From: a virus
Taxonomy: Duplodnaviria; Caudoviricetes
Virus record (IMG/VR): IMGVR_UViG_3300027822_000016
Span: 1-55,299 of that record
DNA length: 55,299 nt
Reading direction: 5' to 3' (one strand)
Shown here: in pieces, positions 1 to 55,299 of the stretch
Numbering within the stretch: the first letter of the stretch is position 1
Layout: each line of letters opens with the position of its first letter
The notes under the pieces: generated by a model
Database searches by the model: none
What the model was told of the DNA's origin: nothing
Seen by the model: only the letters and a program-made list of their open reading frames with translations
Program-made: the position numbers and the translations under genes

Positions 1-256
1 TCAACAAACCCGTACCACTAAAAAAGTCCTTCGCCAACAACACCGGATCGGTGTCTTCCGTCCCCCCAATCTGCACACGCAACAATCGACCCTCATCCAG
101 AGAGAACGGCGGAGTATTCAAAGGAGAAGCAGCATTGAAAAACGAAAACCGGTCATCCGAATTGTCAAGAGTCGCACGAAACCTCCCCGGACTGACCTTC
201 CCGTTCAACTGACTCGCGCTATCCCGCCCCGCACTCGTCTCCGCACCCAAAACATA
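1..256. repeat. Terminal direct repeat/assembly overlap, copy 1 (matches 55044-55299)
   Basis: 256 bp identical to the window end except at 128, 155 and 209. Confidence 0.97.
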
Positions 257-1066: not shown

Positions 1067-1080
1067 AAAAAACTACTCTC

Positions 1081-13884: not shown

Positions 13885-14346
13885 TTACTGCAAATTAGTT
13901 GGGTCAATCCCACTGACCGAAACATGCAGACGGTCGTCCCCTCCCTGGCCGGGAACCTTTGCGTCCGACAGTTCTTCTCGGATGGTGCGTAGAACGTCCA
14001 AGGTCATGCCGAATACAGATGTACGTAGTGTCCCGTCGGTGTTGTAATAGTTTCTGCTACTTGACAGTGGGGCCAACATTTTCTGGTATATGAGCATTCT
14101 GCACGCCCGGTTTGCCCCCCAAAACACTGCTTCCAAATTATGTCCGTCTGCATCGCCCCGTATGAGTTCTTCTTGGGCGGCGATGATGAATGCTTTATTT
14201 TCGCCGTAGAACGCGAGGAGTGTTGTGGAGTCGGTGTGGTACCGCTCCTCAAGTTTTTCAATTTCTTTGATGTCTGCTGTGTCGGATTTTGCCATGTCGA
14301 AAATGAGTTGCATGGCGCGTTTTTCCGGGATGTTGTTTGTGTTCAT
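13885..14346 (-). CDS. Putative terminase small subunit
   Basis: 153 aa helical protein directly upstream of terL; call is positional. Confidence 0.5.
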   Translation of the reverse strand: MNTNNIPEKRAMQLIFDMAKSDTADIKEIEKLEERYHTDSTTLLAFYGENKAFIIAAQEELIRGDADGHNLEAVFWGANRACRMLIYQKMLAPLSSSRNYYNTDGTLRTSVFGMTLDVLRTIREELSDAKVPGQGGDDRLHVSVSGIDPTNLQ

Positions 14347-14449
14347 GGTGGGTCCATTTCTGGATGGGTGGGTGTTGTCGGCGCAGACGGCTTGTTTACT
14401 ACTTTACTCTACACTGTACACACATTTTTCCTGTGCTTGTCGATATCAC

Positions 14450-15005
14450 TCTGCGTGACGGACATATGTGGTCGAACGGTGTAAAAAGCTTACCTGCGTA
14501 CCTCAAAATACGATGACGATTATGAAAATATTCCGTCATTTTCTGTCATTTCTTGACAACTTGTCACCCTTTTCTGAGGGCAATCTGAGAGATATACTGT
14601 GTGTGCTAAAATAACGGTACTATTCTATTAGCACAGGAATGGAAAGAATAAAACGAGCATAACGTGCAAAACATTACGAAACACTCGAAAAAAGGTGACA
14701 AATGACAACTTTGCAAATGAACACATACATATTGTCACGGAAGTTGTCACTCCCAGGAAAAGATGTACGTCAGTAGAAATATGCTCTCCTAGCTGGGCAA
14801 ATACACGACACCTCCCCCAGGAAATAGGTACCTCTCTTTACAATGACTAAATGACAACTTTTCTAGTAAAAGTTTAGGGTAGAGAGAATAGAGTATAGTA
14901 GATAGGAGTGTACTATAGTAAATGGGTAAAGATAGGGTAGTATGAGGGGAATGAGAAATAACCCTATAGTGAAAAGGTTTTACCCAGAGAAAAGTCTGTC
15001 ACCAC
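14450..15005. other. Putative replication origin/divergent control region
   Basis: ORF-free and AT-rich; about 14 TGAC/GTCA motifs in both orientations, AAATGACAACTTT at 14700 and 14849; adjacent to the primase-helicase gene. Confidence 0.55.
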
Positions 15006-15169
15006 CTACCTCAGACATACAGATACCCACAAAGAGCGAGAAACCACATCCCTGGCAAACAGAACCCTCGACACGATAGAAAGAGAGACCAACACCGGCA
15101 CAGAATCACATTATGGCCGAGTCAGAAAAACTGTGATCCTGTCCATAAATTTCTTCCAAATATGTTAGA

Positions 15170-17818
15170 GTGAGTCCTCTACATGTTTGCAACCAAAAAT
15201 GTGGGTACACAATGGCGAAATTTGCCCCTACAAAAGGGCACACAACCCCATCCCTGGAACTGCACTCTCTCACAAAAACCAACACAAAATGCACACTCAA
15301 CCCGAAAGACCTCCTGTACCTCTCCGCAACATACGCGGAAAAAATGCTCCAACAACCCAACGGAAAATCGGCAGGAAGACTCAACCTCATCCACCGACCG
15401 GGAAACCCCTGGGCAGACAGCAAGGACACAAAAAGGAGCATCTGCCTCTTTTGTGGAGAAGTCGGCTGCAAACACCCCTACCGCTCCTGGAAAGATTTTT
15501 CCTGGGGTTCAGCAGCTCAACTCCTCGATGAAGTATCCAGATTGTCGTCTGCCGCACTGATCCCAGACCCCTGGATCACCCTGCAAATAGCCATACGGTT
15601 GGACGGACTGACTGTTCTGGACTGCGACCCACGACACAATGGGCCAGCCACACCAGAGGAAGCATGGGCATGGCTGGAGGACCTAGGGGTGTCTCTCCCC
15701 AACTCAGCAAGAGATACTCTTATTGTGCGTACAGGAGGTGGTGGCCTGCACATCTATTTTTCCGGAGCCACAAATTTTACCTGGGGGGACAGAAAGAGGA
15801 ATGAGGCGGTTTCGGTATTGTCCGGTGGTGGGAGACAGGCGACAGCTCCATTTTCGTACCACAGTGCCGGGGCGTTCTACCTCCCGGTCAACTGGGAGGG
15901 TATTCCGCTGCTCTCACCGAACGACCTTTTGCAAGTGGCAGGCAAAATACAGCCTTTCCCGGAAGAGGCGTTCAGGAGTTATACATGTCCGTCAAGAAGA
16001 GACGTCCAGCAGGAATCGTCTCTCACACCTACCGCGAGTATCCCAGGGAGATTTTCACCTCCGCCAACTACTCCTACCTCAGTGTTGATTGATGGGGTGG
16101 AGATTCCGGGCGACTGGGCGGAACGTTCACGGACATTGACAGACGGCAGGAATAATTTTCTCACACGGGCAAAATTTGCCTTTGTCGTGAATTACAGACG
16201 GGATGACAAAGAGGCGAATCGTCTTATCCGTGTACTGAATGGTACGTTTCCTGATCCTCTGGAGGAAAAAGAATTACTGGAGTCTGTTTTACGGCCGATT
16301 CCGGCAGAGAAAATTGATCCAGCACAAAAAAAAATCTCCGGAGCACCTGAAATTTCTCTTGGGGATCTTCTTCGCCCGAGCATGGATGACGCCGGAAATG
16401 CTGAACGGTGGATTTTGGTCTCTCCCGACCATCTCTATGTCCCGTCCTGGGGATGGGTGTGCTGGAATGGAGGGGTTTGGGAGCGTTTGCCGATTGATCA
16501 GCCTCCTACCAGGGAGTACACACAGCGTGTTGCACGGTCCATGCAGACTATTGCAAGGGAGATGGTCGAGCACACACAAGGAGACGATGACGGGAGATCA
16601 GAGGCACTACAAAAATACGCATCCGGCCTTGGAATGGAAAAATCCATCCTCAAAGCCCTGAATCTCGCACGAGTCAGACCAAGAGGAGAAACAAAATACC
16701 CCTCGGATTTTGACAACGAGCACACCGCAGAAATCCTCAACACTCCAAACGAAATCGTCAACCTACGCACAGGGGAATCCTTGCCCCACAGTGCAGAGTA
16801 TTTGGTGACAAAACAGACAAGTGTGCCCAGAGAAGATGGCACCCCAACACTGTGGACGAATTGCCTGAACACATGGCAACCCGACAAAGAAGTACAACAT
16901 TTTTTGCAGATGCTGGTCGGTTCCGGCCTCACAGGAGTCCCCCTGGACAAATTCGTCATCAATTCGGGGGACGGGGCCAATGGAAAATCGGTTTTTTGGG
17001 GGGCCGTATCGCGAATCATGGGTAGTTACGCGGGGATTCTCCCAGAGGATCTCATCATCAAAAATCCTCATACAGACCGCGAGCGATGTGTTGTGGAGAT
17101 TTCCGGGGTCAGACTTGCTGTTGCCAGTGAGCTGGCAAATGCTGCACAGATGAACGAATCGATGGTCAAACTCCTCACGGGAGGTGAAAGGCTGAAAGCA
17201 CGCCAGTTGTACAGGGAGTCATTCGACGTGACTCCCACGGGAACAATGGTCCTCCATACAAATGCTGAGCCGACTGTGCAAGGGACAGATCATGGCATCT
17301 GGAGAAGAATTTTGTACGTTCTTTGGGATGTACAAATCCCGGAGGGGGGGCAGGATAAACACCTTCTGCAAAAACTTGTATCCGATGAAGGGGGCCGGAT
17401 TCTCTCCTGGGCAGTGGAGGGGGCAAAGATGTTTTTGGAGAATGGGAGTGAGCTTGTTGTCCCGTCTTGTATGGAGTTGGTGAAAAAGGACCGCCAGGGT
17501 GCGTTTGACACGACTGCAGATTTTTTTCAGGAGTATTGTGTATTCGACGATGATAGTTCTATCGGCAAAGGTGATCTGTACAAAAAATATACGGAAATAA
17601 TGCGGCGTAACTTGCCGATTGAGCCACTGGTATCAAAAATTGCTCTGGGGAAAAGGTTGGAAGCTTACGCCAAGGCGAATGATTTTTCTGTGCGCGACGT
17701 GAGAGACAAAAAGAAGCGTATGTGGCAGGGCGTCGGCATACAGGCACAGAATATGCAAACTGCTTCATCCCCTTGGCAGGAGCAAAACACAAATGCTGCT
17801 CCACGTCCTTGGCAGTAG
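15170..17818 (+). CDS. Bifunctional primase-polymerase fused to D5/P4-type SF3 helicase
   Basis: LTVLDCDPRHNG and VRTGGGGLHIYF (prim-pol); DAGNAER, GDGANGKS, KLLTGGE, DHGIWRR (D5-like helicase); start may be the ATG at 15212. Confidence 0.93.
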   Translation: MSPLHVCNQKCGYTMAKFAPTKGHTTPSLELHSLTKTNTKCTLNPKDLLYLSATYAEKMLQQPNGKSAGRLNLIHRPGNPWADSKDTKRSICLFCGEVGCKHPYRSWKDFSWGSAAQLLDEVSRLSSAALIPDPWITLQIAIRLDGLTVLDCDPRHNGPATPEEAWAWLEDLGVSLPNSARDTLIVRTGGGGLHIYFSGATNFTWGDRKRNEAVSVLSGGGRQATAPFSYHSAGAFYLPVNWEGIPLLSPNDLLQVAGKIQPFPEEAFRSYTCPSRRDVQQESSLTPTASIPGRFSPPPTTPTSVLIDGVEIPGDWAERSRTLTDGRNNFLTRAKFAFVVNYRRDDKEANRLIRVLNGTFPDPLEEKELLESVLRPIPAEKIDPAQKKISGAPEISLGDLLRPSMDDAGNAERWILVSPDHLYVPSWGWVCWNGGVWERLPIDQPPTREYTQRVARSMQTIAREMVEHTQGDDDGRSEALQKYASGLGMEKSILKALNLARVRPRGETKYPSDFDNEHTAEILNTPNEIVNLRTGESLPHSAEYLVTKQTSVPREDGTPTLWTNCLNTWQPDKEVQHFLQMLVGSGLTGVPLDKFVINSGDGANGKSVFWGAVSRIMGSYAGILPEDLIIKNPHTDRERCVVEISGVRLAVASELANAAQMNESMVKLLTGGERLKARQLYRESFDVTPTGTMVLHTNAEPTVQGTDHGIWRRILYVLWDVQIPEGGQDKHLLQKLVSDEGGRILSWAVEGAKMFLENGSELVVPSCMELVKKDRQGAFDTTADFFQEYCVFDDDSSIGKGDLYKKYTEIMRRNLPIEPLVSKIALGKRLEAYAKANDFSVRDVRDKKKRMWQGVGIQAQNMQTASSPWQEQNTNAAPRPWQ

Positions 17819-20043: not shown

Positions 20044-20871
20044 TTATAGACTGTTATCTGCGTTCAAGTCAATTATTTGCTTGTAAATATTCACTGCTTT
20101 CACCCCGTATCCGTAGGGCACTTTCAGCGCTTGACACGTATCTCCGCCACGAGGCAGGTGGAAAATAATACCGTACCCATCCTCCCCACAAATGATGCCC
20201 TCAGGCATCGGCTCGTACCACTCTGTTGCCGGATTGTACGTGTAATCCGCACTCGCATAGAGGTAGAGCTGGGGGGAAAAACCCTTCACCGCATACGGTG
20301 CGACACTGCCGGTTTTTATATCCGCGATGACGTGTGTGCCGTCTGCCAGTCGTAAACACATGTCATAACGTCCTGCGACATTGTATTTGGTGTTGACGAT
20401 CACTCGTTCGGTGAGTTCCACAGGGTTTTTTGATCCTGTGAGGAGGACAATCTCCTGGCGGAGTCCTTTGAGTTGTGATTGCATTCCGGGAGTGAGGGAG
20501 GCAAATTTTGCTCCGGAAAGTCTTCCTGTGATGAATTCTTCGACGATTGCGTGTACTTCTGTGCCGTAACTTGCGGCGTTATTTCCTCCACCGGTAAGGA
20601 ATGCTTTTGAGAATATGTCGTTCAGTCGGCTGTTTATTTCTTTTTTTGGGAGGTCGTGAGAGCGTACTTCGGTGATTTTGCGTGCGAAATATTCGGGGTC
20701 CAGGCTGATCCCGAGGAGGGCGATACGTTGTATCCATTCGTTGAGGGCGGGTTTGTCGAGCATGCCGCAAAAACTTGAGACTCGAAGGAGTTCGAGTTTT
20801 TGTTCAACTCCTTCGATGGGGAGAGTGACGATGTATTTGTTTTGTTTGTTGAGGTACGGTGGCCTTTTCAT
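20044..20871 (-). CDS. PD-(D/E)XK exonuclease (RecB/Cas4-like)
   Basis: GTEVH, ERVIV, AGRYD, IADIKTG, QLYLYA. Confidence 0.88.
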   Translation of the reverse strand: MKRPPYLNKQNKYIVTLPIEGVEQKLELLRVSSFCGMLDKPALNEWIQRIALLGISLDPEYFARKITEVRSHDLPKKEINSRLNDIFSKAFLTGGGNNAASYGTEVHAIVEEFITGRLSGAKFASLTPGMQSQLKGLRQEIVLLTGSKNPVELTERVIVNTKYNVAGRYDMCLRLADGTHVIADIKTGSVAPYAVKGFSPQLYLYASADYTYNPATEWYEPMPEGIICGEDGYGIIFHLPRGGDTCQALKVPYGYGVKAVNIYKQIIDLNADNSL

Positions 20872-42482: not shown

Positions 42483-43106
42483 TCACCGACTACGATCTTG
42501 CCTTGTCTTTTTCGCAATCGCAGGAAAAATTGCCATCAGCGTCTCCATTTTCATCAGCCCAAGAGAGACACGAATCTTGCATGTGACATAGTCGGCAAGC
42601 TGTTGCCTTGCCTCCTGCTCACTCTGATCTTCGGCGATCCATTTTAGGTACTTCAACCCTCCGAACACTGTCGGTAGCCAGTCAGCCACCGCTACCAGAT
42701 CGTATATTTTGCCGCGGTACAGTGTGCCGTCCAGTGGGCGGGGGAAATTTTCACCTATATGCACGCGACCATCGACAACGTTGCTTACGTTTTGGGTTTC
42801 GAGTCGTTTCGGACTCCCGACATAAACGGTAAAAATGTCCCGCACCTCACCAAGACCACCGATTAACAGGGCACTTTTGTATATTGCGTCCTGGAGTGCC
42901 CCTTCCAAGATCAAACGACTGGATTCGGCACTCACTTTCTGGCTGCAGGATAACGAGATCTCTTTAATGTCGAGAGATTTGAGCAGTCTCTCGACGTTGA
43001 TGGCCGGGGTGTGGACGAGGTCACCGTTGTCGTCTCTCGGGGCATAGAATCCCATAGGAATGGGTTGTTTCTGCACTTGACTTGCGTCTTTTATAAGCAT
43101 TTCCAT
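42483..43106 (-). CDS. Hypothetical protein
   Basis: 207 aa abutting the resolvase gene. Confidence 0.7.
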   Translation of the reverse strand: MEMLIKDASQVQKQPIPMGFYAPRDDNGDLVHTPAINVERLLKSLDIKEISLSCSQKVSAESSRLILEGALQDAIYKSALLIGGLGEVRDIFTVYVGSPKRLETQNVSNVVDGRVHIGENFPRPLDGTLYRGKIYDLVAVADWLPTVFGGLKYLKWIAEDQSEQEARQQLADYVTCKIRVSLGLMKMETLMAIFPAIAKKTRQDRSR

Positions 43107-43111
43107 TTTAT

Positions 43112-43534
43112 TTAGCTCCCATCATTAATATTTTTCATACCTATTAAATCATTAATTATATGCCTTGCACAAGGCCAATTTTCCCGGCGCATGCTGGGAA
43201 TTCTCTCGCCAGTGAGCAGGTAGAATACATCTGGAGTGCGCCGACCTTTCACCACATCGCCTTGTTGCGCCACTATGGGGTAGACCGGTAGCCCGTACTC
43301 CTTCCACATGACATTTGTGACAATGTTATAAAAACTATTCCATTCCCCAGCGGATATCGATTTCGCCCCAGTCTTGCACTGCACAAGCAAAATTTGTCGA
43401 TGCCCCATTGCAATAACATCTGCGCCCATAGCACTTTTGCTCCCGGCAAAACGTGCCGCCACATACCCCACGTCCGACAAGGACGCAACGACGACACGCT
43501 CAAAAGCCGCACCTCTCTGATAATTCGTCATCAC
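43112..43534 (-). CDS. Holliday junction resolvase (Hjc-like PD-(D/E)XK)
   Basis: YQRGAAFER...AGSK...ADVIA...LVQCK. Confidence 0.82.
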   Translation of the reverse strand: MMTNYQRGAAFERVVVASLSDVGYVAARFAGSKSAMGADVIAMGHRQILLVQCKTGAKSISAGEWNSFYNIVTNVMWKEYGLPVYPIVAQQGDVVKGRRTPDVFYLLTGERIPSMRRENWPCARHIINDLIGMKNINDGS

Positions 43535-44583
43535 ACAACCTCCTTCGCCTTCATCTCGGCCTTGACTTGTTTTCTCCGATCCTTGAACCCTTCATGTCTG
43601 CAGATGGATGATGGGGATACGCCAATCTCCTCTGCAATGATGTTGTCCATTTTCATGCGTCCTTCATCGTCGAACCAGTTCCCGGATTGCACACCAGCGT
43701 CATCCAGCCAATCCTCAATTGCAGTACGTGCTGTGCCTCGTTTGATCGGGATCACACCCGCCGCAATTTCACGGGCTGATTGCAATGCAATTTCATTTTC
43801 ACGATCCAACCCCGCTGCAATTTCACGAGCTGATTGCAATGCAATTTCACTCCTTGGATTCTGTGCAATTTCATGCGCTGCCTCCTCTGCAATTTCATAC
43901 GCTGATTTCACTGCAATTTCATGCGATGATTTCACTGCAATTTCACTCCTCGGATTCTGTGCAATTTCAGGCTGCACCACAATTTCAGACTTCATCGCCT
44001 CAACATGACTGCGATTCACCACAGCAAAAAGCCTCGTCAACCGCAGCACGCCCTCGATTAAGAGGACAAATACTGTCGATGGCAGAGCTTCAAAAATCGC
44101 ATACCCCGCGTGCCCCACTACAAATAGGGCATACGACGCATTGAGTACGAGCGTGGAGATACCAACACCAAGCATCGCCCAGCGAAAAAGTTGCATCGCA
44201 CTGGCATGCTCCCTCTGCAGCTCTTTCTCGTCATCACCTGGCGAGAGCAGCACAAAAATCAAATTCACACTAACCAGAAAGAGCAAAAACGTATCTAGCA
44301 TTGGTGCTACCAACACTGACAAATTGTCAGGGACACCCAGATAGGCTCCCAATCCCTGGATATTTCGGAACGAAAAAAGATACGCGCACCAAATCAATGC
44401 CCCCGTTGTTGCAAACGATGTGAGAAACATCAATCCCAACACATCGTTACGGACATTGAAAATTCTGTTTTTCAATGTCCGTAACGAATGCACAAAACGT
44501 TGCTTCCGAGCGGCACGAGCGCTCTCACGCACCATTTTCCTCTCCCGTTTCTCCCTCATTTTCACCTGATATTTCGTCTCCAT
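43531..44583 (-). CDS. DUF2637/Spd-like membrane protein with EIA repeats and C-terminal HTH-like motif
   Basis: Four TM segments with SF..I..L, PMLD, LN and LP...E pattern; IAEEIGVSPSSICR at the C-terminus. Confidence 0.65.
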   Translation of the reverse strand: METKYQVKMREKRERKMVRESARAARKQRFVHSLRTLKNRIFNVRNDVLGLMFLTSFATTGALIWCAYLFSFRNIQGLGAYLGVPDNLSVLVAPMLDTFLLFLVSVNLIFVLLSPGDDEKELQREHASAMQLFRWAMLGVGISTLVLNASYALFVVGHAGYAIFEALPSTVFVLLIEGVLRLTRLFAVVNRSHVEAMKSEIVVQPEIAQNPRSEIAVKSSHEIAVKSAYEIAEEAAHEIAQNPRSEIALQSAREIAAGLDRENEIALQSAREIAAGVIPIKRGTARTAIEDWLDDAGVQSGNWFDDEGRMKMDNIIAEEIGVSPSSICRHEGFKDRRKQVKAEMKAKEVV

Positions 44584-44678
44584 TTTCTTCTCCTCTCCCC
44601 CTAAGAACCCCGAAGGGGTTGCCGTCGATTTTTATGCGGTCTGACCTGCACTTTTCAATTTTTGATTCCGGACAGTTC

Positions 44679-45716
44679 CTAGTCATTTCCTGGTCGGTTT
44701 CCCACTCGATCTCCCGTTCGGTTTCCCACCCGGTTTCCCACTCGATTTCCCGTTGGGTTTCCACCGTTCTCAATGCTCCTGCGCTTTGGCGGAGCCAAGG
44801 AGAAGAGGGTCATCGGTCGGTCCTTGGCAGCATGGCTTCCCAGTTTTCCCCATATTGCGGAGAGGGCGCCATGCTCGTAGTCGGGTGTGAAGAATGCCTT
44901 TTTTGTAGCGACGCCGACGTTAAAACCTGGGGGCATTTCGGTGTTTCTGTGGGTTTCCCAGATTGCTTTTGCGCATTCTTTGCCGCCGAATCCACGCCGG
45001 TCGTCTTCTGTAATGATGAGTAGGCGGGGGAATTCTCCTCCGGGGAAGCGTTCTCGCCATGCGTCTGGGGTGTTGTACAAATGCTTATATTTTTGCACTT
45101 TTTCTGCTAGTTTGCTTACTCCTTGTGTGCCTCTGTCCAGCTCAATGATGAGTGGCACTACTGTTATCTGCCCGTTGCGCACCGCGATGTAGTGCAGGAT
45201 CATGTCGGAGATCAGCAGTTGCTCATCACCTCGTTTTGTTTTGCGGTACTTGAACGCAATTTCGTGCTCCCATGCGTATGGGTCGCACTGGTCGCCCATT
45301 GTTAGTGCGATTTCGCAGAATCGCAGTCCGACCCGGTTGGCGAGGAGCGGATGGTAGGGCCATATTCTCCCTGTTGGGTTGTGCAGCCATCCACGGTCAA
45401 GCTTTGGATTCCCTTGGCATACTGCGTCGATTCCTTTTTCCGTCGCATGCCAGCAGACCCGATTTTTCTTGCCGACCTCGCCAGTGCGTTTGTTGATGTA
45501 CTCACCATTTTTCAGTGTTGTCAAGTGGTCGTTAAATTTACTCAGGGGTGATAAGCCCAGGTAGAAATGCATTTTTTGTAGTGTGCTGGAGGTGATGTAT
45601 CTGTGTTGGGTAAGTAACGTCACCGTGGTGGCTTGCCGCTCGGAAAACACAGATGCGCCACTTTCCCCCCCTTTCTCTGGTGGTGTCCCTCGCGGTTTTG
45701 TCTCTGTCGCTCGCAT
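44679..45716 (-). CDS. Replication-relaxation family protein (putative relaxase)
   Basis: L.QHRYITS winged-helix start, W.AT.KG, HPLLAN, WEHE, SD, IELDRGT, KVQKY, FPRLLII. Confidence 0.8.
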   Translation of the reverse strand: MRATETKPRGTPPEKGGESGASVFSERQATTVTLLTQHRYITSSTLQKMHFYLGLSPLSKFNDHLTTLKNGEYINKRTGEVGKKNRVCWHATEKGIDAVCQGNPKLDRGWLHNPTGRIWPYHPLLANRVGLRFCEIALTMGDQCDPYAWEHEIAFKYRKTKRGDEQLLISDMILHYIAVRNGQITVVPLIIELDRGTQGVSKLAEKVQKYKHLYNTPDAWRERFPGGEFPRLLIITEDDRRGFGGKECAKAIWETHRNTEMPPGFNVGVATKKAFFTPDYEHGALSAIWGKLGSHAAKDRPMTLFSLAPPKRRSIENGGNPTGNRVGNRVGNRTGDRVGNRPGND

Positions 45717-45746
45717 ACTTTGGCCCCATTTCGTGAAATTTCACAG

Positions 45747-45825
45747 GAAATTGCACATCCGTCATTGTCGTTACTCCGTCAACACATTTATTACGTAGTA
45801 TAGTTGTGCAATTTCATCCACGCCA
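45747..45825 (-). promoter_or_regulatory. Inverted-repeat-flanked core with promoter (candidate oriT/operator)
   Basis: GAAATTGCACA 45747-45757 and TGTGCAATTTC 45805-45815; TGGCGT-N17-TATACT at 45797-45825. Confidence 0.5.
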
Positions 45826-45840
45826 TCTAGAATTTTTGAC

Positions 45841-46402
45841 CGTGAAATTTCACGAGCTAATTTCATGAGCAATTTCACGAGCCAATTTCATGAGCAATTT
45901 CACGAGCCAATTTCATGAGCAATTTCACGAGCTGATTTCACAAGGCAATTTCACGAGCTGATTTCATGAGTAATTTCACGAGCTGATTTCACAAGACGAT
46001 TTCATGAGCAATTTCACAAGGCAATTTCACAGGCAATTTCACAAGGCAATTTCACAGGCAATTTCACAGGCAATTTCACGAGCAATTTCACTAGCCAATT
46101 TCACAAGGCAATTTCACGAGCTGATTTCATGAGCAATTTCACGAGCTGATTTCACAAGGCAATTTCATGAGCAATTTCACGAGCAATTTCATGAGCAATT
46201 TCACGAGCAATTTCATGAGCAATTTCACAAGACGATTTCATGAGCAATTTCACGAGCAATTTCACAGGCAATTTCACTAGCCAATTTCATGAGCAATTTC
46301 ACTAGCCAATTTCATGAGCAATTTCACTAGCCAATTTCATGAGCAATTTCATGAGCAATTTCATGAGCAATTTCACTAGGCAATTTCATGAGCAAATTTC
46401 AC
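45841..46402. repeat. Tandem array of about 45 (A/G)ATTTCA-core repeats, 12-13 bp period
   Basis: Counted by eye; units include GCAATTTCATGA, GCAATTTCACGA, GCTGATTTCACAA, CCAATTTCA. Confidence 0.97.
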
Positions 46403-49254
46403 AACATATAAAAGGGGAGGCCGTCCCCGCCCGCAATTGTCTCTTCCTCGCTACCATCTGCAACTGCACAATCCATCGTGGAATCTTCCACTACAACAGC
46501 ACTGTCATCTGCAATTTCATCTGCGATTTCATCTGCGATTTCATCTGCAATTTCATCCAAATCAAAATCGATGATCCGTTGCACAAGAGTTTTTTGGTGT
46601 CGTGCAACTGTCTCAAATGACACGCCTTCGTCATCCCGTAATACCGGATAAGGCAATTCTCCCGGTTCTCCGAGTATTGCTTTTGCGTCCAGTCCATGCA
46701 GTAGGTGGTGCTGTAGTGGATTCGCCTGGTGGGGCGAACGTGCAACTGCACACATCTGATACTGCAACCCAGTGAGTGGTATGTGGTCGGGGACGAGCAA
46801 TTTTCTCCGAAATTTATCTGCGTCATCCTGCGTGTTGAATGCGACCTGCAGCAAACTTGCATTCGCCAGTACAACGTCTTCTATTCCATAGGGGAGTTGC
46901 CCAAAATTTTGTGCAGCGAAAATGAGGGGCATATTGCTCTTGCGCCCTTGGGTCAGAAGGAGATTTATGGAGTCTCGGAATGCCCCGATAAATGAAGGTG
47001 CCTCATCCATAATAATGAGATGTGGTGGGTGTTCTCTGGCGTCCGCCATGTCAGCCCGGCCGTACACTGATTGCCGCAGGTACGCTGCAATAAATGCGCC
47101 GAAAATGTTTCCAACATGCTGGTCTTTTCCCGTGCGAAGTTGAATGAGCGTGATTTTCCCGCGTCCGACATCCATTTGCGGGGACCATCGAGTTTTTGAC
47201 GATCCCAACATGGTGTACATCGTGTCGTCTACTTTTGCGCTGTCGATGATCTCAAGCGGACCTTCGACAGAACTCCGCTGCACCCTTTCCCAATCTCCTG
47301 CGATGTTTTCCGGCAGAAGAGAGACGATTTTCTCCTGGAATGCAATTGATTTTGGGTCTTCTCGGACCATCGTGGCGAGTTGGAATACTGTGGTTTGGAT
47401 GTCTTCCGGCAAGCGGCTGTTTGCCACTACCAGTGAGGTGATGAGTACTTTGAGTACTCGCCTGATTTTAGGGGCATTGTCCGTCCTCCACTCACCGGCA
47501 GAACAAAGCGCACTGAACGCACCACTCGCGATGTTATCCACCTGTCCCCTTTTTGCACCCTTCGGCACGAATAGAGGATTCATCGGCTTCTGTAACGACC
47601 CCTCCTCTTTATTGTCCATGTCAATAACATGGAGTCGTTCGCGCATGTGCGCGCGTGCATCTGGGCCATCACAATCCTGGAGGTAGTAGTTCAGAAGTTT
47701 CGCTGTTTGTGCATCAGGCACGATAATTGTTGCGGATGCGTCCTCCCGAGAAGAGAGATACGTCACAACAGCGGACACAAGCGCACTTGTTTTCCCCCCA
47801 CCAGAAGGGGCCACAAGCATCCAAGCAACAAAATCCTGCAAATCCGCAGCTTTTCTCTGCCCATCAATCTCCCCAATAGGGAGAGCGTACCGGGGATTTT
47901 CACTGTCCCAATCCGGTAGGGAATTTTCGTCTCTCCCCTGGCCTGCAATTTCAGTGAGCGTGACCTTATTTATAGGGGGCAAAAAGAGCGGGGTGAGCGG
48001 TCCGATTGCCATTGTCCACGCGCGTTGTTTGTCGATTTTCGCTGTCTTCATACTGGTGTCGAATCGTCGAGCAGCGGTGGCCCCGGATGAGTGGCTACGT
48101 TCTTGGAGGATGTTTTGTCCGGAATCCAACGCCAGTCGAAGAGCGGCGCTGATGTTTGTGGCGATTTGTTGTGCGCGTGTTTCGGTTGCCGCCACAGAAG
48201 CGATACTTATGTCGCATACTCCTATGGGGTCGGTATTTGTGAGCTGTGCGCCTGCATCGCGGGCGGCTTTGCGAAATTTTTCTGCGTCTCCCTGGTCGAC
48301 TGGCCCAACATCCACTACGACCCACACAGCGTCGGTGTCGGAAAAGTTTTTCGCCGCTTTCTCAATCTGGACGTGTGGGTCTTGTATGGTGATGGATTCC
48401 AGTGCGCCAACGAAACTGTTGCTACGGCGTTGTGGATGGAAACTCGCCCGTGCGACGCCTACGTTTGCGTTTTTGTGTGGCCAGTCTTCGAGGACTCTCC
48501 CTGATTCTCGTCGTACCTGTATCCCTTTTGGCATTTGTGCGGCAAAAACTTCTTCCATGTCGCTTGTCACCTGGACATAAATAGAAAGTGCGTCTCTCCT
48601 TACCTGCGTGATCCCACGTACGACAGTATTCGTTTCCCCTGCTCGTAGTACCGCCAATCCCAAAACTTTGCTCGCCTCTTCCAGTGGAAGGACGTCAAAG
48701 TCGCTTTCCGGGAGGAGTTGTAAAGTGACGATTTCTTCTTTCGGATTTTTCCCTCGCCAAAACATGGCCACTGCGTCCCTCAGGTCAAATTCTTTCCCGC
48801 TCCGTACACGAGTCAATAACACCGCTATGGAGTACACAACGAGCAAAAAAATGGTCAGGATGATACAGACTGCGCCCCAGAAGAGTATGAGAAAAAGAGT
48901 TCGGTGCAGTGTCCATGCGATCATAAAAAAGACCAGTGCGTAAAACCCGCACACCCACAACATGGCCAAAAGAGAATTCAAACCGGAAGCCAAAAGCGTC
49001 TGCAAAAGAAACAGTCCGTAGACGAACGATGCGATCGTCGACGCCCACGTCACCGACCAGCGCACACTCGTGCCGGATGAGAGCATTGCCAGGAAAATGG
49101 GCACCCAAATAGAAATGGGCACATAGAGCCATACCTTTATAGGCACACTAGGTACAACCACTCGCTCATTACCATCTCCATCATTTGACAAAGATCGCAG
49201 CAAGCGAATGTTTGCAACGTTTTCGAGTAGTTCTTTAAGATCGAGGAGAGCCAT
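46399..49254 (-). CDS. VirD4/TraG/TrwB-like type IV coupling ATPase with N-terminal TM segments
   Basis: Walker A APSGGGKT, MNPL, Walker B IIMDEAP, GRKSN...FAAQNFGQL...VLAN; three to four N-terminal TM helices. Confidence 0.82.
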   Translation of the reverse strand: MALLDLKELLENVANIRLLRSLSNDGDGNERVVVPSVPIKVWLYVPISIWVPIFLAMLSSGTSVRWSVTWASTIASFVYGLFLLQTLLASGLNSLLAMLWVCGFYALVFFMIAWTLHRTLFLILFWGAVCIILTIFLLVVYSIAVLLTRVRSGKEFDLRDAVAMFWRGKNPKEEIVTLQLLPESDFDVLPLEEASKVLGLAVLRAGETNTVVRGITQVRRDALSIYVQVTSDMEEVFAAQMPKGIQVRRESGRVLEDWPHKNANVGVARASFHPQRRSNSFVGALESITIQDPHVQIEKAAKNFSDTDAVWVVVDVGPVDQGDAEKFRKAARDAGAQLTNTDPIGVCDISIASVAATETRAQQIATNISAALRLALDSGQNILQERSHSSGATAARRFDTSMKTAKIDKQRAWTMAIGPLTPLFLPPINKVTLTEIAGQGRDENSLPDWDSENPRYALPIGEIDGQRKAADLQDFVAWMLVAPSGGGKTSALVSAVVTYLSSREDASATIIVPDAQTAKLLNYYLQDCDGPDARAHMRERLHVIDMDNKEEGSLQKPMNPLFVPKGAKRGQVDNIASGAFSALCSAGEWRTDNAPKIRRVLKVLITSLVVANSRLPEDIQTTVFQLATMVREDPKSIAFQEKIVSLLPENIAGDWERVQRSSVEGPLEIIDSAKVDDTMYTMLGSSKTRWSPQMDVGRGKITLIQLRTGKDQHVGNIFGAFIAAYLRQSVYGRADMADAREHPPHLIIMDEAPSFIGAFRDSINLLLTQGRKSNMPLIFAAQNFGQLPYGIEDVVLANASLLQVAFNTQDDADKFRRKLLVPDHIPLTGLQYQMCAVARSPHQANPLQHHLLHGLDAKAILGEPGELPYPVLRDDEGVSFETVARHQKTLVQRIIDFDLDEIADEIADEIADEIADDSAVVVEDSTMDCAVADGSEEETIAGGDGLPFYML

Positions 49255-49257
49255 GTT

Positions 49258-49722
49258 TCAACTCCCGTGACGTTCGTCCGCGGCCTTACCCAGCTGAGCC
49301 AGTGCAGTGAGAGCGATTTGGTCCTGGGGATTTGCAGCGAGCATGCTATTGATCCGAGTTTCCAGCTCTTCTGGGGTCGCGCCATGCATGAGCAGCTGCG
49401 TTGCCATATTGATGACAGCCGGATCGTATTTGCTGAGAGGTTTCGGTGGAGTGCCAAAATGCAGCTCCACCGAACCTTTTGCGCCTTTTGCATTCACGAA
49501 CAGATATTTCGGCATGCGTGTTGTTTGACTGTTGTCAATGGCGACATGCCGACTGGTGTCCGTGTGCGTGCTGGCGTTGACACTGACCTCGCCGATATCA
49601 GTGTCAACGACATTCGTATTTTCCATGTGTGTGCTTTCTTCTGGCGGTTTTTTTCTGTGAAAAAATTCCAGGTAAATGAGGAACGCCAAGGTGGAGAGCC
49701 AGAGAATTTCAAGCCCTGTCAT
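49258..49722 (-). CDS. Single-TM membrane protein
   Basis: N-terminal TM helix; abuts the ATPase gene. Confidence 0.75.
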   Translation of the reverse strand: MTGLEILWLSTLAFLIYLEFFHRKKPPEESTHMENTNVVDTDIGEVSVNASTHTDTSRHVAIDNSQTTRMPKYLFVNAKGAKGSVELHFGTPPKPLSKYDPAVINMATQLLMHGATPEELETRINSMLAANPQDQIALTALAQLGKAADERHGS

Positions 49723-50053
49723 GCTCCACCCGGCCGGAAAGCGCCTTCGCCTTCGACTTTTCGATTTTTACCTCTGCCCGTGTTTTCGACGGACTCACGC
49801 ATTGTGCGTGGAATGCGTCATTTGTGAGCACGTCGATGACGTGACGAACTCGAGAAATTGCTTGCACAGCAACGTACATGAGAGTGACGCAAAGGAAAAA
49901 GAGTGCGTCAATCCCCTGGTAGCCGCTTCGGTAGACGCCAATGACCCCGGAGAGAAACGCTCCTGCTTCTAGCATGGCGAGAAAAGTGTTTCTTCGCAGC
50001 CATCCCGCTGGGAGTTGGTCAAGTTTCTCTGAAATGTCCTTGTACCACTTCAT
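49709..50053 (-). CDS. Small two-TM membrane protein
   Basis: Likely start MKWYKD at 50053 with RBS; two hydrophobic segments. Confidence 0.7.
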   Translation of the reverse strand: MKWYKDISEKLDQLPAGWLRRNTFLAMLEAGAFLSGVIGVYRSGYQGIDALFFLCVTLMYVAVQAISRVRHVIDVLTNDAFHAQCVSPSKTRAEVKIEKSKAKALSGRVEHDRA

Positions 50054-50149
50054 TTTTGTTCCCTTCCTATAGAAAAACGGAAGGGTACGGAAATAAATCC
50101 CGTACCCTATAAATATTTTACCCGATCGCATATTTAATTGCCAGATATA

Positions 50150-52048
50150 TTATTTCCCCCACCTGGAAAGACCAGTCGCAGCATCCAAATAGACCTTTGT
50201 ATCGACAACAATAGGCACACCAAAAAAATGTCCCTCCCCACGCATTGCCTCCGCAAACAACTGTCTCATCTCCTCCACATCCGCACGGTCAACACACACA
50301 ACAGTCTCGTCGTGAATCAAATCCCAAATATGTCCAGCTATGCCCATCTCCAACATTCTCAACACCGCTCTCGCAAGCAGCTCCCTCGCAGTCGACTGCA
50401 CAACATAATTCAAATTCCTGTAGGTCGCCAGCTCCCCATTCTCCTGGCGAGACACAGGAATTTTTCTCCCGACAAACGTCTCCACGTAATCAGTGAATCG
50501 TGAAAGTACATCCCTGAACTCTTTCGCCTTCGGATAACTCCGCCAAAACCCTTGTACCATTTTCTGTGCCTCATCCATGCCACACCCTGCACGTACATTG
50601 ACCGCATTTGCTCCTCCGCCGTACACAACCATAAAATTAACAATTTTTGCCAATTTTCGGTCGCAGCCAATGAGATCTCTCGTTTGCTGGTGAAGATCCC
50701 CGCCCCGGTCATACACATCAAGCATTCGTGGCTCGCGAGCAAGACTCCCAAGCACACGCAACTCAACCTGCGAAAAATCGAAACCGATAATCACCTGGTC
50801 ATCATTGTGAGGAAGAAACAGCCTCCGTAGCTTCGGGTCGACATTCATGACATTCGGATCTGCGGCACTCAACCTCCCCGTTATTGCACCGACAACGTGG
50901 AAAGTCGGATGCACAAACCCATTACCGTCCACCCGTTCCAAATATCCTTTTGTGGAGGTAAGAGCATTCACCTCCTCGACAACCTGCAGATACAGGCGCA
51001 CAAACTCTCTCCCTTTTGCATCCAACGGTTGCTGCCGAAGAAGCGGAACATCTTTTTTATTAAAACTGACCCGACCTGTCTCTGTCATCGGATACGTGTC
51101 AGTGTCCAGGCCGTGCTCAATAATCCACTCCCCCAGTCGTTGGCGCTGCTTATAGTCATACCCAGTAACATGTTTGATGCCCACGTTCAAGGGGACAATT
51201 CTAGCGTTACACTCCTCGTACACTTTCTCTGCCTGCGGAATATCAAGACGCATCCCCCGATGACGCATCCCCACTGTCACCGCATTCAGAGAATTCGCGT
51301 CCGCTTTGAGCAGCGCATTCGGTGCCCCCGTCTCCGCACACAGCCTATCGAGTATCCTCCGCACCGCGATAGCGTCCATACCTGCATAGATGAGGTACCG
51401 CTCGTTGTCCAGAGAGATGTTCGCCCATCCCCACGACTCTGCTTTTTTCGATGCCTTCTTGAATCCCGCTTCTCGACGACCAATGTCAGAAAGCTCCGTC
51501 TTCAGGCAGTCCGCCAGATTTCCGAGCTGGGGCATTCCGTAGCATGTGGCAATATGTTTGAGGTCATATTTTGAAAATTGCCTGCCTTTTTTTGTCCAGT
51601 ACAGGAAACTTTGTTCGCTGTTCATCCTGGCGATGACGTGTGTGTTCCAGTTTCTTGCGCTTATGTCGATTCCGAGACCGGCTTGTAGGGCATGGACGTC
51701 TGCGTCGGTATGCGAGCAAAATTGGTTGCGTTCGTCCTGTAAAAATGCTGATACGATCGACATTTGGTAGGGATCGTTCGTTCGGAAAACCCACGCGTCG
51801 GTTTTACTCCCTATCTGCACCAGGCGGAGCGAGAAATCTGGTGCCCAGAATGATCCTTGTTCTTCGGGGATGGCGAATTCTGTGTCGAGTCCCCACATGG
51901 GGTGTTTTTCTGTCGTCCGAGAGAATTTTTCCCATTCCGGCAGCCATTCTCGTGTGCCATGTTCGGGGGCATGGACGTGTACAGTTTCGCCTCCGAGGGA
52001 TGTTTCCCATGTTCGGACATATCCTTTTTTTAAAGTGCTGTTCGGCAT
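50150..52048 (-). CDS. DNA polymerase, family A, with 3'-5' exonuclease
   Basis: LDTE, YAGMDA, TGRLS, DFSQVELR, KIVNF..VYG, IHDE. Confidence 0.95.
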   Translation of the reverse strand: MPNSTLKKGYVRTWETSLGGETVHVHAPEHGTREWLPEWEKFSRTTEKHPMWGLDTEFAIPEEQGSFWAPDFSLRLVQIGSKTDAWVFRTNDPYQMSIVSAFLQDERNQFCSHTDADVHALQAGLGIDISARNWNTHVIARMNSEQSFLYWTKKGRQFSKYDLKHIATCYGMPQLGNLADCLKTELSDIGRREAGFKKASKKAESWGWANISLDNERYLIYAGMDAIAVRRILDRLCAETGAPNALLKADANSLNAVTVGMRHRGMRLDIPQAEKVYEECNARIVPLNVGIKHVTGYDYKQRQRLGEWIIEHGLDTDTYPMTETGRVSFNKKDVPLLRQQPLDAKGREFVRLYLQVVEEVNALTSTKGYLERVDGNGFVHPTFHVVGAITGRLSAADPNVMNVDPKLRRLFLPHNDDQVIIGFDFSQVELRVLGSLAREPRMLDVYDRGGDLHQQTRDLIGCDRKLAKIVNFMVVYGGGANAVNVRAGCGMDEAQKMVQGFWRSYPKAKEFRDVLSRFTDYVETFVGRKIPVSRQENGELATYRNLNYVVQSTARELLARAVLRMLEMGIAGHIWDLIHDETVVCVDRADVEEMRQLFAEAMRGEGHFFGVPIVVDTKVYLDAATGLSRWGK

Positions 52049-52196
52049 TTCCGGCTATCCTCTGTACTGTCGTCTGTGACGGATGATCGCGAGATCAAGG
52101 ACAGAGTCCCACTCTTTTTATGCGTTCGGGAGTGGGACTCTTCTTTTCCTGGATTATTGGTGTTCGCTACACTAACAGTGTCATATGAAACGTTTG

Positions 52197-52875: not shown

Positions 52876-55299
52876 TCACACTGGGCTGAGGTCCCACTCC
52901 GTGACCCACGATGTCACTCCATGTGACCAACGATGACGTATAGCGACGATGAGAAAATTTCTCTCAATACCCATACCGGTATTTCCCGAGGCGATCAGAT
53001 GGATCTTGTCCCCGAACCTCCGTATGTACGCCTGGTAGCGGTAATCGCTTCTCTTCGTCGCGGTGAATGAGATCGTGAGAAGCGGCAACGGATCTGCATA
53101 TTTTGCGAGAACCTGAGAGTTAAAACTTTCTGCATCGGCGACAGAGCTAAAAACAGAGTCCGTGTGTTGCCAGGTTTTTATCGCCCCAAGTGCTGCCTGC
53201 GACGCCGTATTATCACTGGCGACAACTCTCCCACCAAGACTCGGAGGAGGCTGCCCCTCGTTCCCTCTTACCGCGAGAACGAGCGTCTCCAAGTGGTCAA
53301 AATTTACCGGTGGGTGGGTGAACCATCCAGGGGCGAAAACGTCTTGCGCCCGGTTCGCTCCCGCGATTTGATACCCGACATCAAATGCGTTTGTACCGCT
53401 TCCTTGCACGATACCGTCATCCAGCGCGTGCATCCGAAACGGGGTGTTGGAGAATGTAAGAGTGGGTACACTTCCTCCTCCCGTTCCGACATTTCCAACC
53501 ATTGCACCGATGTGCGCGAGAAAAATTGTTGCTGTCGCTCCCCAGGGTGAGCCTAATACTGGCGGGAAGTTTCGTCCTGCTCTGGCGAGGGACCCGGTTT
53601 CCGGTTCGCCGTACCCTGAGACCGCGAGTGCTGTGCCTGATTCGATGCTGCCGTACCAGTCACGTAGGTAGATTGCGTGTATACTCCATGCTCCGCCTGA
53701 AATTTCATCGTCGTTGTAAAATGTTGTGAGTGGTCGGCTGGCGACATCATAATCTGTCAATGTCTTTGCGTATACACGTATTTTTCCCAGTTCAGCACCA
53801 GCGCCACGCAAATTATCCCACCCAGGAGGGGTCAACCACTGTTCAGCCTTGTCGTACACCGTTGAGACGATAAACAGGACAGCCAGATCGCCCACTTCGA
53901 TAAGTGTCGAAGGAACCTGCATCTCTATTGCATTTGCTACTCCAGCACTCGTCGACCGACTCGACTCCCCCTTCGTCACGATATTCGGCAGAAATGGTGG
54001 AATAGGAGTGACCACACGATTCACCCGCTCCCCGCGCCAACTATGCAGCTGCAAAGATTCGTAAATAAATTGTCCCCCTGGGGCATCAGATAATTCTATT
54101 GTTGGCTGATTCGCACTAAGCATGTGATTGTACAAAAAGCAAATCCTGCCCTCGTTCCCTTCACATACATACCCCAAGTCTGTGTTTTCATATACTCGTA
54201 GGAGGCTTAGAAGATTCCGCTGAGCGTACGCATGCCCCCCACAATTCAACACCAGGTTGGAATTGAACGGATTTGTGTTGCCCGCAGGGTGCAACAATCC
54301 CCCCTGGCGTAACGCGTGTCCCACCGCAACCGCAACGGACGTCCCCACACTCGCTTCCTCATCGACTCCGACAGTCGCGATACTGTCTACCTCTGTATTT
54401 GCGGCCAGAGAGAGGGGACCTTCCGCCTCCAAAACCGCAAACTTCCCCTCCGTCGGACTCACGGACGGGATAACACTGGTCACACGCCCAGTCCAAATCA
54501 CATCAGCGTTTGTGAATCCGCCCCACGTATTCCAGACGAGAAATTCGTCCCATTCAGGAGCTTCTTTTGTCCGCCACTGGCTATAAAGACCGTATTTCTG
54601 TCCCCCCGTGCCGAATGCCACCGGATTGTCCTTCAGATCCCCATTGATAAAAATGTTCACGTTTGAGCCAGAAACGAACAATTGTAATGTCAGTTCTGGT
54701 GTGTCCTCTATCGTGAATTGGCTTGTTTTTGAAAGAGATCCTGCAGTTTTCGTCCAGTGTTGTATGTTCAAAAAATTTGATATGTCGACTTCTGCGAGGA
54801 CAAGTCCGTAGTTTGAGGCGTCTGTCAGTCTGTAGACGATCCCCAGGTCTGACCTTATGTCCTTCTTGATGTATGTAGCTTGCATGAAGCATGCATCAAC
54901 ACCGAGGTCGACGGCGTCAATCGAACGATAATCTGTCGACGCCACATGCGGACGCAACGGACGAGCAACACCTGACCCACTCCGGTAATGCCCCAAATTC
55001 TCTATCGCCTCCCACGTATTCCCCACCTCATCAAGCGACCCATTCAACAAACCCGTACCACTAAAAAAGTCCTTCGCCAACAACACCGGATCGGTGTCTT
55101 CCGTCCCCCCAATCTGCACACGCAACAATCGACCCTCATCCAGAGAGAACGGCGGAGTATTCAAAGGAGAGGCAGCATTGAAAAACGAAAACCGGTCGTC
55201 CGAATTGTCAAGAGTCGCACGAAACCTCCCCGGACTGACCTTCCCGTTCAATTGACTCGCGCTATCCCGCCCCGCACTCGTCTCCGCACCCAAAACATA
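52876..55299 (-). CDS. Large minor tail protein, 3' part (begins at 1066 across the junction)
   Basis: Open frame to the window end; Gly/Ser/Thr-rich beta content; C-terminal GDKIHL...IRHRW...W tail-hub-like ending. Confidence 0.85.
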   Translation of the reverse strand, partial: YVLGAETSAGRDSASQLNGKVSPGRFRATLDNSDDRFSFFNAASPLNTPPFSLDEGRLLRVQIGGTEDTDPVLLAKDFFSGTGLLNGSLDEVGNTWEAIENLGHYRSGSGVARPLRPHVASTDYRSIDAVDLGVDACFMQATYIKKDIRSDLGIVYRLTDASNYGLVLAEVDISNFLNIQHWTKTAGSLSKTSQFTIEDTPELTLQLFVSGSNVNIFINGDLKDNPVAFGTGGQKYGLYSQWRTKEAPEWDEFLVWNTWGGFTNADVIWTGRVTSVIPSVSPTEGKFAVLEAEGPLSLAANTEVDSIATVGVDEEASVGTSVAVAVGHALRQGGLLHPAGNTNPFNSNLVLNCGGHAYAQRNLLSLLRVYENTDLGYVCEGNEGRICFLYNHMLSANQPTIELSDAPGGQFIYESLQLHSWRGERVNRVVTPIPPFLPNIVTKGESSRSTSAGVANAIEMQVPSTLIEVGDLAVLFIVSTVYDKAEQWLTPPGWDNLRGAGAELGKIRVYAKTLTDYDVASRPLTTFYNDDEISGGAWSIHAIYLRDWYGSIESGTALAVSGYGEPETGSLARAGRNFPPVLGSPWGATATIFLAHIGAMVGNVGTGGGSVPTLTFSNTPFRMHALDDGIVQGSGTNAFDVGYQIAGANRAQDVFAPGWFTHPPVNFDHLETLVLAVRGNEGQPPPSLGGRVVASDNTASQAALGAIKTWQHTDSVFSSVADAESFNSQVLAKYADPLPLLTISFTATKRSDYRYQAYIRRFGDKIHLIASGNTGMGIERNFLIVAIRHRWSHGVTSWVTEWDLSPV
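55044..55299. repeat. Terminal direct repeat/assembly overlap, copy 2
   Basis: Matches 1-256. Confidence 0.97.

Follow-up and report, generated by a model that had tools for sequence, protein, structure and literature searches.

The Replic_Relax family (PF13814) corresponds to the MOBC relaxases of CONJscan, and its members are found paired with VirD4 coupling proteins among the integrative and mobilizable elements of streptococci (PMC5357655). The MOBC prototype, TraX of plasmid pAD1, features an N-terminal winged helix-turn-helix (HTH) domain and binds its origin of transfer (oriT) at five direct repeats located 70-120 bp from the nick site; according to the same account, no covalent DNA intermediate was detected (PMC12857230). 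In addition, the oriTs of pAD1 and pAM373 are described as containing inverted repeats and AT-rich DNA (PMC5587640). A locus of comparable composition is present in IMGVR_UViG_3300027822_000016, a linear IMG/VR record of a marine tailed phage (Duplodnaviria; Caudoviricetes) that was analyzed over its whole length of 55,299 bp, hereafter the window, and in which a long polar array of 12- and 13-bp repeats separates the gene for a membrane ATPase (P0003) from that for a Replic_Relax protein (P0002). Francia and Clewell reportedly placed, in 2002, the oriT2 of pAD1 between a TraG-like gene and the relaxase gene, with oriT2 itself made up of a large inverted repeat and, adjoining it, short direct repeats that determine specificity. 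By analogy, the phage array may represent tandem binding sites for the P0002 winged helix, forming an oriT-like site of the pAD1/MOBC type enlarged about ninefold, a reading that is held here with middling confidence.

The main array occupies positions 45853..46401 on the minus strand, like all genes neighboring it, and consists of 44 direct units of 12 or 13 bp, a count taken from one short-read metagenome assembly whose reads are shorter than the array. Parsed from 46401 down to 45853 (549 bp), all units share one orientation; 23 are 12 bp and 21 are 13 bp long, giving a mean period of 12.47 bp, and 12 unit types can be distinguished. TGAAAT is invariant in 44/44 units, the following three bases are mostly TGC, and the commonest core is TGAAATTGC, so that constraint within units falls on TGAAAT and the bases after it while the linker of 3-4 bp is free to vary. 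A 45th copy forms half of a palindrome, GTGAAATTTCAC, at 45842-45853. Tandem Repeats Finder reports the region 45846-46402 as 44.7 copies of period 12 (score 617) or 22.3 copies of period 25 (score 657), with the next-best tandem array in the window scoring just 182. The window contains 43 copies of the motif TGAAATYGC against an expectation of 1.54, every one of them on the minus strand, and none of 100 shuffles reached 43. The TGA of the first unit serves as the stop codon of the 951-aa P0003, and the array ends about 140 bp before the P0002 gene (start 45716), thereby filling the gap between an ATPase resembling type IV coupling proteins and a PF13814 gene. The array region is AT-richer than its surroundings. 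A coding reading was considered and rejected: minus-strand frames give EIA-type peptides but meet stops every few units, and all six frames are closed, with 8-22 stops each and a longest open stretch of 59 codons. The first-pass annotation, made from the letters alone, had described about 45 polar, non-coding copies between an ATPase and a relaxase gene, and its account of position, copy number, polarity and coding status agrees with this parse, as do the linkers it had listed for the plus strand (TGAGC, CGAGC, CAAGGC, CAGGC, CTAGCC and CGAGCT), all of which are present.

P0002 (345 aa; 44679..45716, minus strand) is a Replic_Relax/MOBC-type protein composed of an N-terminal winged HTH, a PD-(D/E)XK-like nuclease core and a GNRV-repeat tail. 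It matches PF13814 (E 3.6e-11) and phrog_9381, labeled 'replication initiation by nicking' (2.5e-8). Its AlphaFold2 model (predicted local distance difference test, pLDDT, 75.5; predicted template modeling score, pTM, 0.73) runs in the order H-H-H-beta-beta, a three-helix winged HTH, followed by an alpha-beta3-alpha-beta core. Foldseek matched the model to FokI (E 1.5e-3), to PadR/MarR winged helices with probability 1.0 over about 80 residues, and to PaqCI; since no match reached E <= 0.001, the assignment of the nuclease domain rests mainly on Pfam and on what is reported for the family (PMC3424549, PMC5714925). A Protein Data Bank (PDB) sequence search with the Replic_Relax profile returned nothing significant. 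Across 26 homologs, W-x-HEIA, D171 and E192-x-D194 are invariant. As in a MOBC oriT, the protein encoded next to the repeats therefore belongs to PF13814 and has a modeled winged HTH joined to a PD-(D/E)XK-like core.

Beside the array lies a nested inverted repeat of 125 bp (45731..45855) that is built from the array core and may be a nick region and/or an operator. Its outer arms (45731-45744 and 45842-45855) are 14 nt long and 100% complementary, each containing the palindrome GTGAAATTTCAC, and its inner arms (45747-45757 and 45805-45815) are 11 nt, again 100% complementary, and correspond to TGAAATTGCACA in both orientations. Folded as single-stranded DNA, the repeat gives z = -3.70, with one of 200 shuffles as good. 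The second GTGAAATTTCAC palindrome ends 14 nt upstream of the P0002 ATG. Mostly enclosed by the inverted repeat, and partly overlapping it, is a conserved block of 48 bp (45766..45813, minus strand) that contains TATACT (45797-45802) and TTGAC. This block is identical at 44/48 positions to the related metagenome contig L012 and at 47/48 to another, L010, while the relaxase protein encoded beside it is only 65-68% identical between the window and L012. The TATACT could be a -10 element judging by its letters; a simple sigma-70 scan of 45500-46600 found 0 promoter sites, and thus none in the 48-bp block. In L012, an inverted repeat also follows directly after the array (fold z -2.2).

Close relatives of the module carry arrays at the same place. 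All four such contigs (L009-L012) break in an array at the corresponding position, as is expected of repeats, which make assemblies break. L010, whose relaxase is 99% identical, starts inside a 17-unit array in which nine units are TGAAATTGCCTTG; it shares only four unit types with the window, and its unit order differs greatly, indicating that array order turns over fast. L012 and L011 (65% identical) start in a period-13 array with the core GCAATCT/GCAAKY, and after it come an inverted repeat and the conserved block. In L009 (ATPase 80% identical), a TGCAAY-type array opens directly after the stop codon, and the contig ends 30 nt into it. Relatives therefore conserve the position and period of the array but not the sequence of its units. 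Comparison of the window with L012 shows 40/67 = 60% identity in the P0002 winged helix and 123/165 = 75% in the nuclease core, and a more diverged winged helix is what would be expected if binding specificity had moved together with the unit. The first-pass annotation had named the lack of any comparable array in relatives with the module among the grounds that would refute its proposal, and in this respect the outcome is in its favor.

Beyond these contigs, 77 further metagenome loci contain a Replic_Relax gene at 23-37% identity. In 33/77, a plus-strand open reading frame (ORF) of at least 500 aa ends at the Replic_Relax start, and most of the remaining 44 are contigs with too little upstream DNA to tell. 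Tandem repeats of period 11-13 or 23-25 were sought from -600 to +150 nt of the ORF start in the 23 loci that have more than 300 nt upstream of the ATPase ORF; such repeats, of 2.0-6.4 copies, are present in 18/23, whereas a background of 78 in 637,836 bp elsewhere predicts about two among 23 loci. Two of the five negative loci (L017 and L035) have such a repeat inside an over-long first-start ORF, and 4/10 loci with too little upstream DNA show one anyway. These distant modules are mostly GC-rich, and their ATPase and Replic_Relax pair is conserved and strictly linked. In L075 (5191-5257) and L068 (5095-5149), the repeats are intergenic, lying between a C5 DNA methyltransferase gene and the ATPase gene. 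Among plasmids, tblastn recovered 70 records, 68 from Streptomyces and two from Kitasatospora and no others, of which 61 are typed non-mobilisable; in one Streptomyces plasmid the pair is located near a lytic transglycosylase/peptidase gene and before a ParB-N gene. The distant repeats, with their period of about 12 or 24 bp, are candidate transfer origins of plasmids typed non-mobilisable. We know of no description of 12-bp repeats upstream of ATPase and Replic_Relax operons, although no literature search was made. The Bacillus phage Novomoskovsk (L091; MT422786), the only cultured phage with an FtsK and Replic_Relax pair that was examined, has a 262-bp 'gap' (43403-43664) between its FtsK gene and an annotated 91-aa Replic_Relax gene; by eye, this gap appears to continue the reading frame upstream, and the annotated start may be too late.

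P0003 (951 aa; 46399..49254, minus strand) contains N-terminal transmembrane helices, Walker A (GGGKTS) and Walker B (IIMDEAP) motifs and an acidic C-terminal tail. From its motifs and model it is provisionally called an FtsK-HerA-superfamily ATPase of the conjugative VirD4/VirB4 type, with no finer family assignment. It has no Pfam or NCBIfam family match, neither it nor any of 24 homologs matches FtsK_SpoIIIE in Pfam, and a PDB sequence search gave nothing significant. P0003 shares 24% identity over 466 aa (E 2e-14) with the ATPase that precedes Replic_Relax in L075, and 3/24 of its homologs match the coupling-protein domain PF10412 (TrwB_AAD_bind; best E 2.7e-4). Its AlphaFold2 model is poor (pLDDT 48), and the top Foldseek matches of this low-confidence model in the PDB are TrwK/VirB4, DndH-C, HerA, DotL, Cag-beta and TrwB (E 2e-5 to 1e-3). 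The acidic tail includes four in-frame 12-nt units of TGAAATYGCAGA (46508..46555, minus strand), encoding (DEIA)x4 and carrying the array's core. L009 has a single GATGCAATTGCA (DAIA) in the tail where the window has GATGAAATYGCA, and both its tail motif and its array core read TGCAAT, not TGAAAT, which hints at covariation or gene conversion between array and coding DNA. A terminator-like hairpin with a T-run (46414..46428, minus strand) overlaps the last ATPase codons just before the array, a weak signal with one site against a shuffle mean of 0.9.

If the array is a relaxase docking site, each 12-13-bp unit would accommodate one winged helix of P0002, which is encoded immediately downstream. 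P0002 monomers would dock head to tail and coat about 550 bp, and since successive proteins at a 12.47-bp period are offset by about 68 degrees, the coat would wind helically along the DNA. Such a coat would raise the local concentration of nuclease beside the 125-bp inverted repeat, whose oppositely oriented cores could pair two nuclease domains in a FokI-like manner, and a nick would be placed in or near the conserved 48-bp block. Through the palindrome before its ATG, P0002 may repress its own promoter. P0003, as a VirD4/VirB4-like membrane ATPase, would receive the processed DNA, and the outcome would be either conjugative mobilisation or nick-primed phage replication.

P0001 (350 aa; 43531..44583, minus strand) comprises a basic N-terminus, a transmembrane domain, a linker of (x-EIA-x4) repeats and a C-terminal HTH-like domain, the last read by eye from the protein sequence and without fold support. 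It has no Pfam or NCBIfam match, and a PDB sequence search found nothing significant. The first-pass annotation had labeled this membrane protein DUF2637-like, a label that is only a lead: the nearest Atlas clusters are 'DUF2637 domain-containing' proteins of Actinomycetota (score 0.89; 192/256 features), and Pfam offers no match. Four arrays of period 12 occur within about 2.9 kb of the locus. Inside P0001, in-frame 12-nt units (43763..43969, minus strand) alternate NNTGAAATTGCA with GTGAAATCAGCG-type copies, the two core variants of the main array; the linker contains nine TGAAATTGC copies at 24-bp spacing (Tandem Repeats Finder period 24/48), and TGAAATCAGC is also present. A second polar 12-bp array (44656..44775, minus strand) has about nine units with the core GGAAAY, covers the 3' end and stop of the P0002 gene, and lies upstream of P0001. 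Its core and period recur in L012 (1318-1410), where the proteins are 65% identical, and it is conserved at the DNA level, since the L012 ORF stops early inside the array. Another protein could bind the GGAAAY array, such as P0001, which is encoded next and is a possible alternative binder of the arrays. Between this array and the P0001 ribosome-binding site, a GC hairpin, AACCCCTTCGGGGTT, is found at 44606-44620 (minus strand) and is kept in L012 at about 1465-1480.

The phage record has a CheckV completeness estimate of 83%, and general scans of the window covered 30 ORFs against Pfam and 20 against PHROGs. The window contains a siphovirus-like gene set (large terminase, portal, major head protein and tape measure) together with replication genes of its own, namely an 882-aa primase-helicase, a helicase and a family A DNA polymerase, and no tRNA genes. 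Words of the locus are present in five marine metagenome runs from five studies, and no RNA run is among the listed sequencing runs with such words. Neither megablast of 43000-52100 nor tblastn of P0002 and P0003 found a match among 50,697 phage records. Other carriers were also sought by DNA pattern (three cores at 12-13-bp spacing), yielding one viral and 34 genome stretches; these were judged unrelated, as none of the 35 codes for a P0001-P0003 relative (tblastn E <= 1e-3) and core counts are only 3-9 per stretch. A known RNA family was likewise rejected as chance, the only matches being two to Gut-1 at 22-23 bits against a gathering score of 50. At the right end of the record, an 805-aa ORF (52876-55293) belongs to no family and is tail protein-like by composition, and tail genes occupy the left end (2-3557), so that the linear record is probably permuted or a cut circle. 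An Hjc/Mrr-like nuclease (PF01870, 3.5e-6) is encoded at 43112-43534, directly after P0001, and a PD-(D/E)XK nuclease (PF12705) at 20044-20871; counting P0002, nucleases of this fold number at least three in the phage. Between a leftward 153-aa ORF (13885-14346), itself upstream of the large terminase gene, and the rightward primase-helicase gene lie 820 bp of AT-rich non-coding DNA (14350-15170). This region holds four of the seven GACAACTT copies in the window, where 2.2 are expected, and is a candidate regulatory region or replication origin separate from the array locus.

Several observations weigh against a relaxase docking site. Known MOBC bind sites have about five repeats, not 44. The repeats of the distant modules precede the ATPase gene instead of separating the two genes, the inverted repeats beside them are inconsistent (absent in three of six loci examined), and the 18 positive loci, many of which are near-duplicates, reduce to about a dozen independent unit sequences. 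In phage Novomoskovsk there is no array. L012 has a TGCAAT-like array core, yet TGAAAT half-sites remain near its promoter, a discrepancy that any model with one binder has to accommodate. At the protein level, L012 retains the EIA-type coding repeats of P0001, which may therefore be unrelated to binding. No mating-pore, integrase or partition gene was found in the Pfam and PHROGs scans of this 83% complete record, and the family call of P0003 as a coupling-type ATPase leans on a poor model (pLDDT 48). Furthermore, the locus stands among replication and recombination genes, which keeps nick-primed replication a live alternative as the outcome, and a separate origin candidate lies beside the primase gene.

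Among the rival explanations, an iteron-type origin or copy-control site is unlikely. On this view P0002 would be a Rep protein whose binding to the repeats opens or nicks the origin and whose binding to the palindromes represses its own gene, with the motif clusters on the other side of its gene acting like a P1 incA-type control array. Direct repeats together with an operator-like palindrome sharing their core are the classic anatomy of iteron plasmids, motif clusters are found on both sides of the P0002 gene in a region AT-richer than its surroundings, and the locus sits in a replication/recombination block between PolA and the Holliday-junction-resolvase-like gene. The family is also named for replication as well as relaxation (PMC3424549), in line with the PHROG label of nicking-type replication initiation. 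However, the core-sharing palindrome is the only mark of an iteron origin that fits: P0002 is modeled as a nuclease and has no known iteron-Rep fold, no DnaA-box-like cluster accompanies the repeats (0/8 window matches to the box fall in 37-49.6 kb), and the 12.47-bp period does not amount to whole helical turns, the usual iteron spacing being 11 or 22 bp. The 820-bp AT-rich region, with its own repeated motif beside the 882-aa primase-helicase, offers a separate origin candidate, and the lytic transglycosylase/peptidase gene beside Streptomyces plasmid modules is a conjugation context. A centromere or membrane tether, in which an adaptor coat such as the C-terminal HTH of P0001 anchors or segregates phage DNA in the manner of ParR-parC or TubR-tubC, is given a slim chance. 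It would account for many short direct repeats at about one per helical turn, as in type II/III centromeres, for the joining of a membrane domain to an HTH-like C-terminus in a protein of the same gene string, for the conserved GGAAAY array directly upstream of P0001, and for the ParB-N-domain gene after Replic_Relax in a Streptomyces plasmid. The first-pass annotation had suggested both a centromere-like role and binding by the membrane protein's HTH, and neither gains support: no ParA, ParM or TubZ-like motor or other partition NTPase was detected in the 30 ORFs scanned against Pfam in this incomplete genome, there is no sign of plasmid maintenance for the phage, and the window and L012 have identical HTH-like segments in P0001 (…SSICRH…) even though their array cores differ.

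A neutral minisatellite is slightly less credible still. Slippage or unequal crossing-over would have expanded a 12-nt EIA coding repeat into the gap, with 13-bp variants breaking the frame, and this would suit the single frames of the array that read ...AHEIAREIAHEIA... between stops, the array-type 12-nt units in frame within P0003 and P0001, and the fast turnover that leaves unit order very different between relatives with 99% identical relaxases. Neutral drift sits poorly, however, with an array kept in position across 65-80% identical lineages despite changed unit sequence, with TGAAAT invariant in 44/44 units while linkers vary, with the recurrence of the core in both orientations in the adjacent inverted repeat, and with distant modules that keep 12-bp repeats too. 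It is very improbable that the array is a clt-like site at which P0003, as a TraB/FtsK-type double-stranded DNA translocase, reads the repeats and pumps unprocessed DNA. Short polar repeats beside a membrane translocase gene are reminiscent of such a site, and the module's plasmid relatives are actinobacterial (68 Streptomyces and two Kitasatospora of 70 records), but the clt/TraB combination of an FtsK/SpoIIIE translocase with no relaxase is not what is found: FtsK_SpoIIIE matches are absent from P0003 and its 24 homologs, the low-confidence fold matches point to VirB4/VirD4/HerA and not FtsK, and a relaxase-like nuclease, which the TraB system reportedly does not need, is strictly linked to the ATPase. 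Of the clt-like loading locus in the first-pass annotation, a non-coding, polar, cis-acting-looking array tied to its module is supported; Streptomyces clt/TraB is not the closest model, and the 'bind' repeats of MOBC relaxases such as pAD1 TraX match better. Hardly credible, finally, is a short-read mis-assembly that created the array or set its length. With 549 bp in units of 12-13 bp, the array does exceed short-read length, and no independent contig spans it, yet array words are contained in Logan contigs of four marine runs from four studies, three other assemblies break in arrays at the corresponding position, and the depth of the array in the richest run exceeds that of its flanks by a factor of about 1.3 at most, which speaks weakly against a collapsed array; in the other runs (X2-X4), array parts without contig cover count neither way.

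Taken further, the relaxase docking reading leads to a phage that owns the DNA-processing half of a conjugation system, consisting of a coupling-type ATPase, a MOBC relaxase and a giant oriT, and that is self-mobilisable, a proposal considered distinctly unlikely. Its genome would be moved, or its copying started, without virions, via a resident mating pore or between attached cells, and the expanded array would serve the relaxase as a platform for high-capacity loading and as a timer working by titration. Direct-repeat bind sites of endonuclease-like relaxases are already known; the novelty lies in how large the array is, in a layout of several arrays whose units recur in frame within both neighboring genes, and in the carrier being a marine tailed phage. 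If the array is a relaxase docking site, we are aware of no larger 'bind' array for any oriT-like site, and the locus would offer a natural system for how endonuclease-like relaxases find and hand over DNA. Its occurrence in a tailed phage, with a coupling-type ATPase gene next to it, is relevant to the question of whether plasmid-style nicking can also serve phages for travel or for starting replication. The boundary between phages and plasmid-style transfer is described in reviews as not yet crossed (PMC12282955), and a conjugation-related element is reported in only 6/223 phage-plasmids of E. coli and S. aureus (PMC10123127). In actinobacterial plasmids typed non-mobilisable, 12-bp repeats accompanying ATPase and Replic_Relax operons may help to locate transfer origins.

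Compared with known systems, the phage locus resembles pAD1 oriT2 and TraX of Enterococcus faecalis, where the TraG-like protein is TraW, in the shared Pfam family PF13814, the winged helix, the restriction-endonuclease-like core, the short direct repeats, which in pAD1 lie away from the nick site, and the adjoining gene for a coupling-protein-like ATPase. The parts are the same and so is their order, going by the order reported for pAD1, with about ninefold more repeats in the phage. The two differ in that 44 units of 12-13 bp stand against about five short repeats, and in that the carrier is a tailed phage, where the 83% of the genome on record revealed no mating-pore genes; moreover, P0002 is too distant from any Firmicute example for tblastn detection in the phage collection, and its plasmid matches come only from Streptomyces and Kitasatospora. 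The distant GC-rich, probably actinobacterial modules (L019-L086) share a homologous gene pair, the 12-bp period, polarity relative to the genes and an intergenic position, but have 3.6-6.4 copies (2.0-6.4 over all positive loci) located upstream of the ATPase gene and with unit sequences unrelated to those of the window.

Streptomyces clt/TraB likewise presents a polar short-repeat array beside a membrane DNA ATPase and matches the actinobacterial affinity of the module, whereas P0003 is not recognisably FtsK-like and the phage has a relaxase-like nuclease. Repeat centromeres and iteron origins, such as P1 incC/incA and those of the pPS10 type, are similar in their tandem direct repeats, which a small DNA-binding domain would coat, in a palindromic operator-like site that shares the repeat core, and in motif clusters that flank the gene; they differ from the phage locus, which has a period of 12.47 bp and no DnaA-box cluster and in which the search for a partition motor or a known Rep fold gave none.

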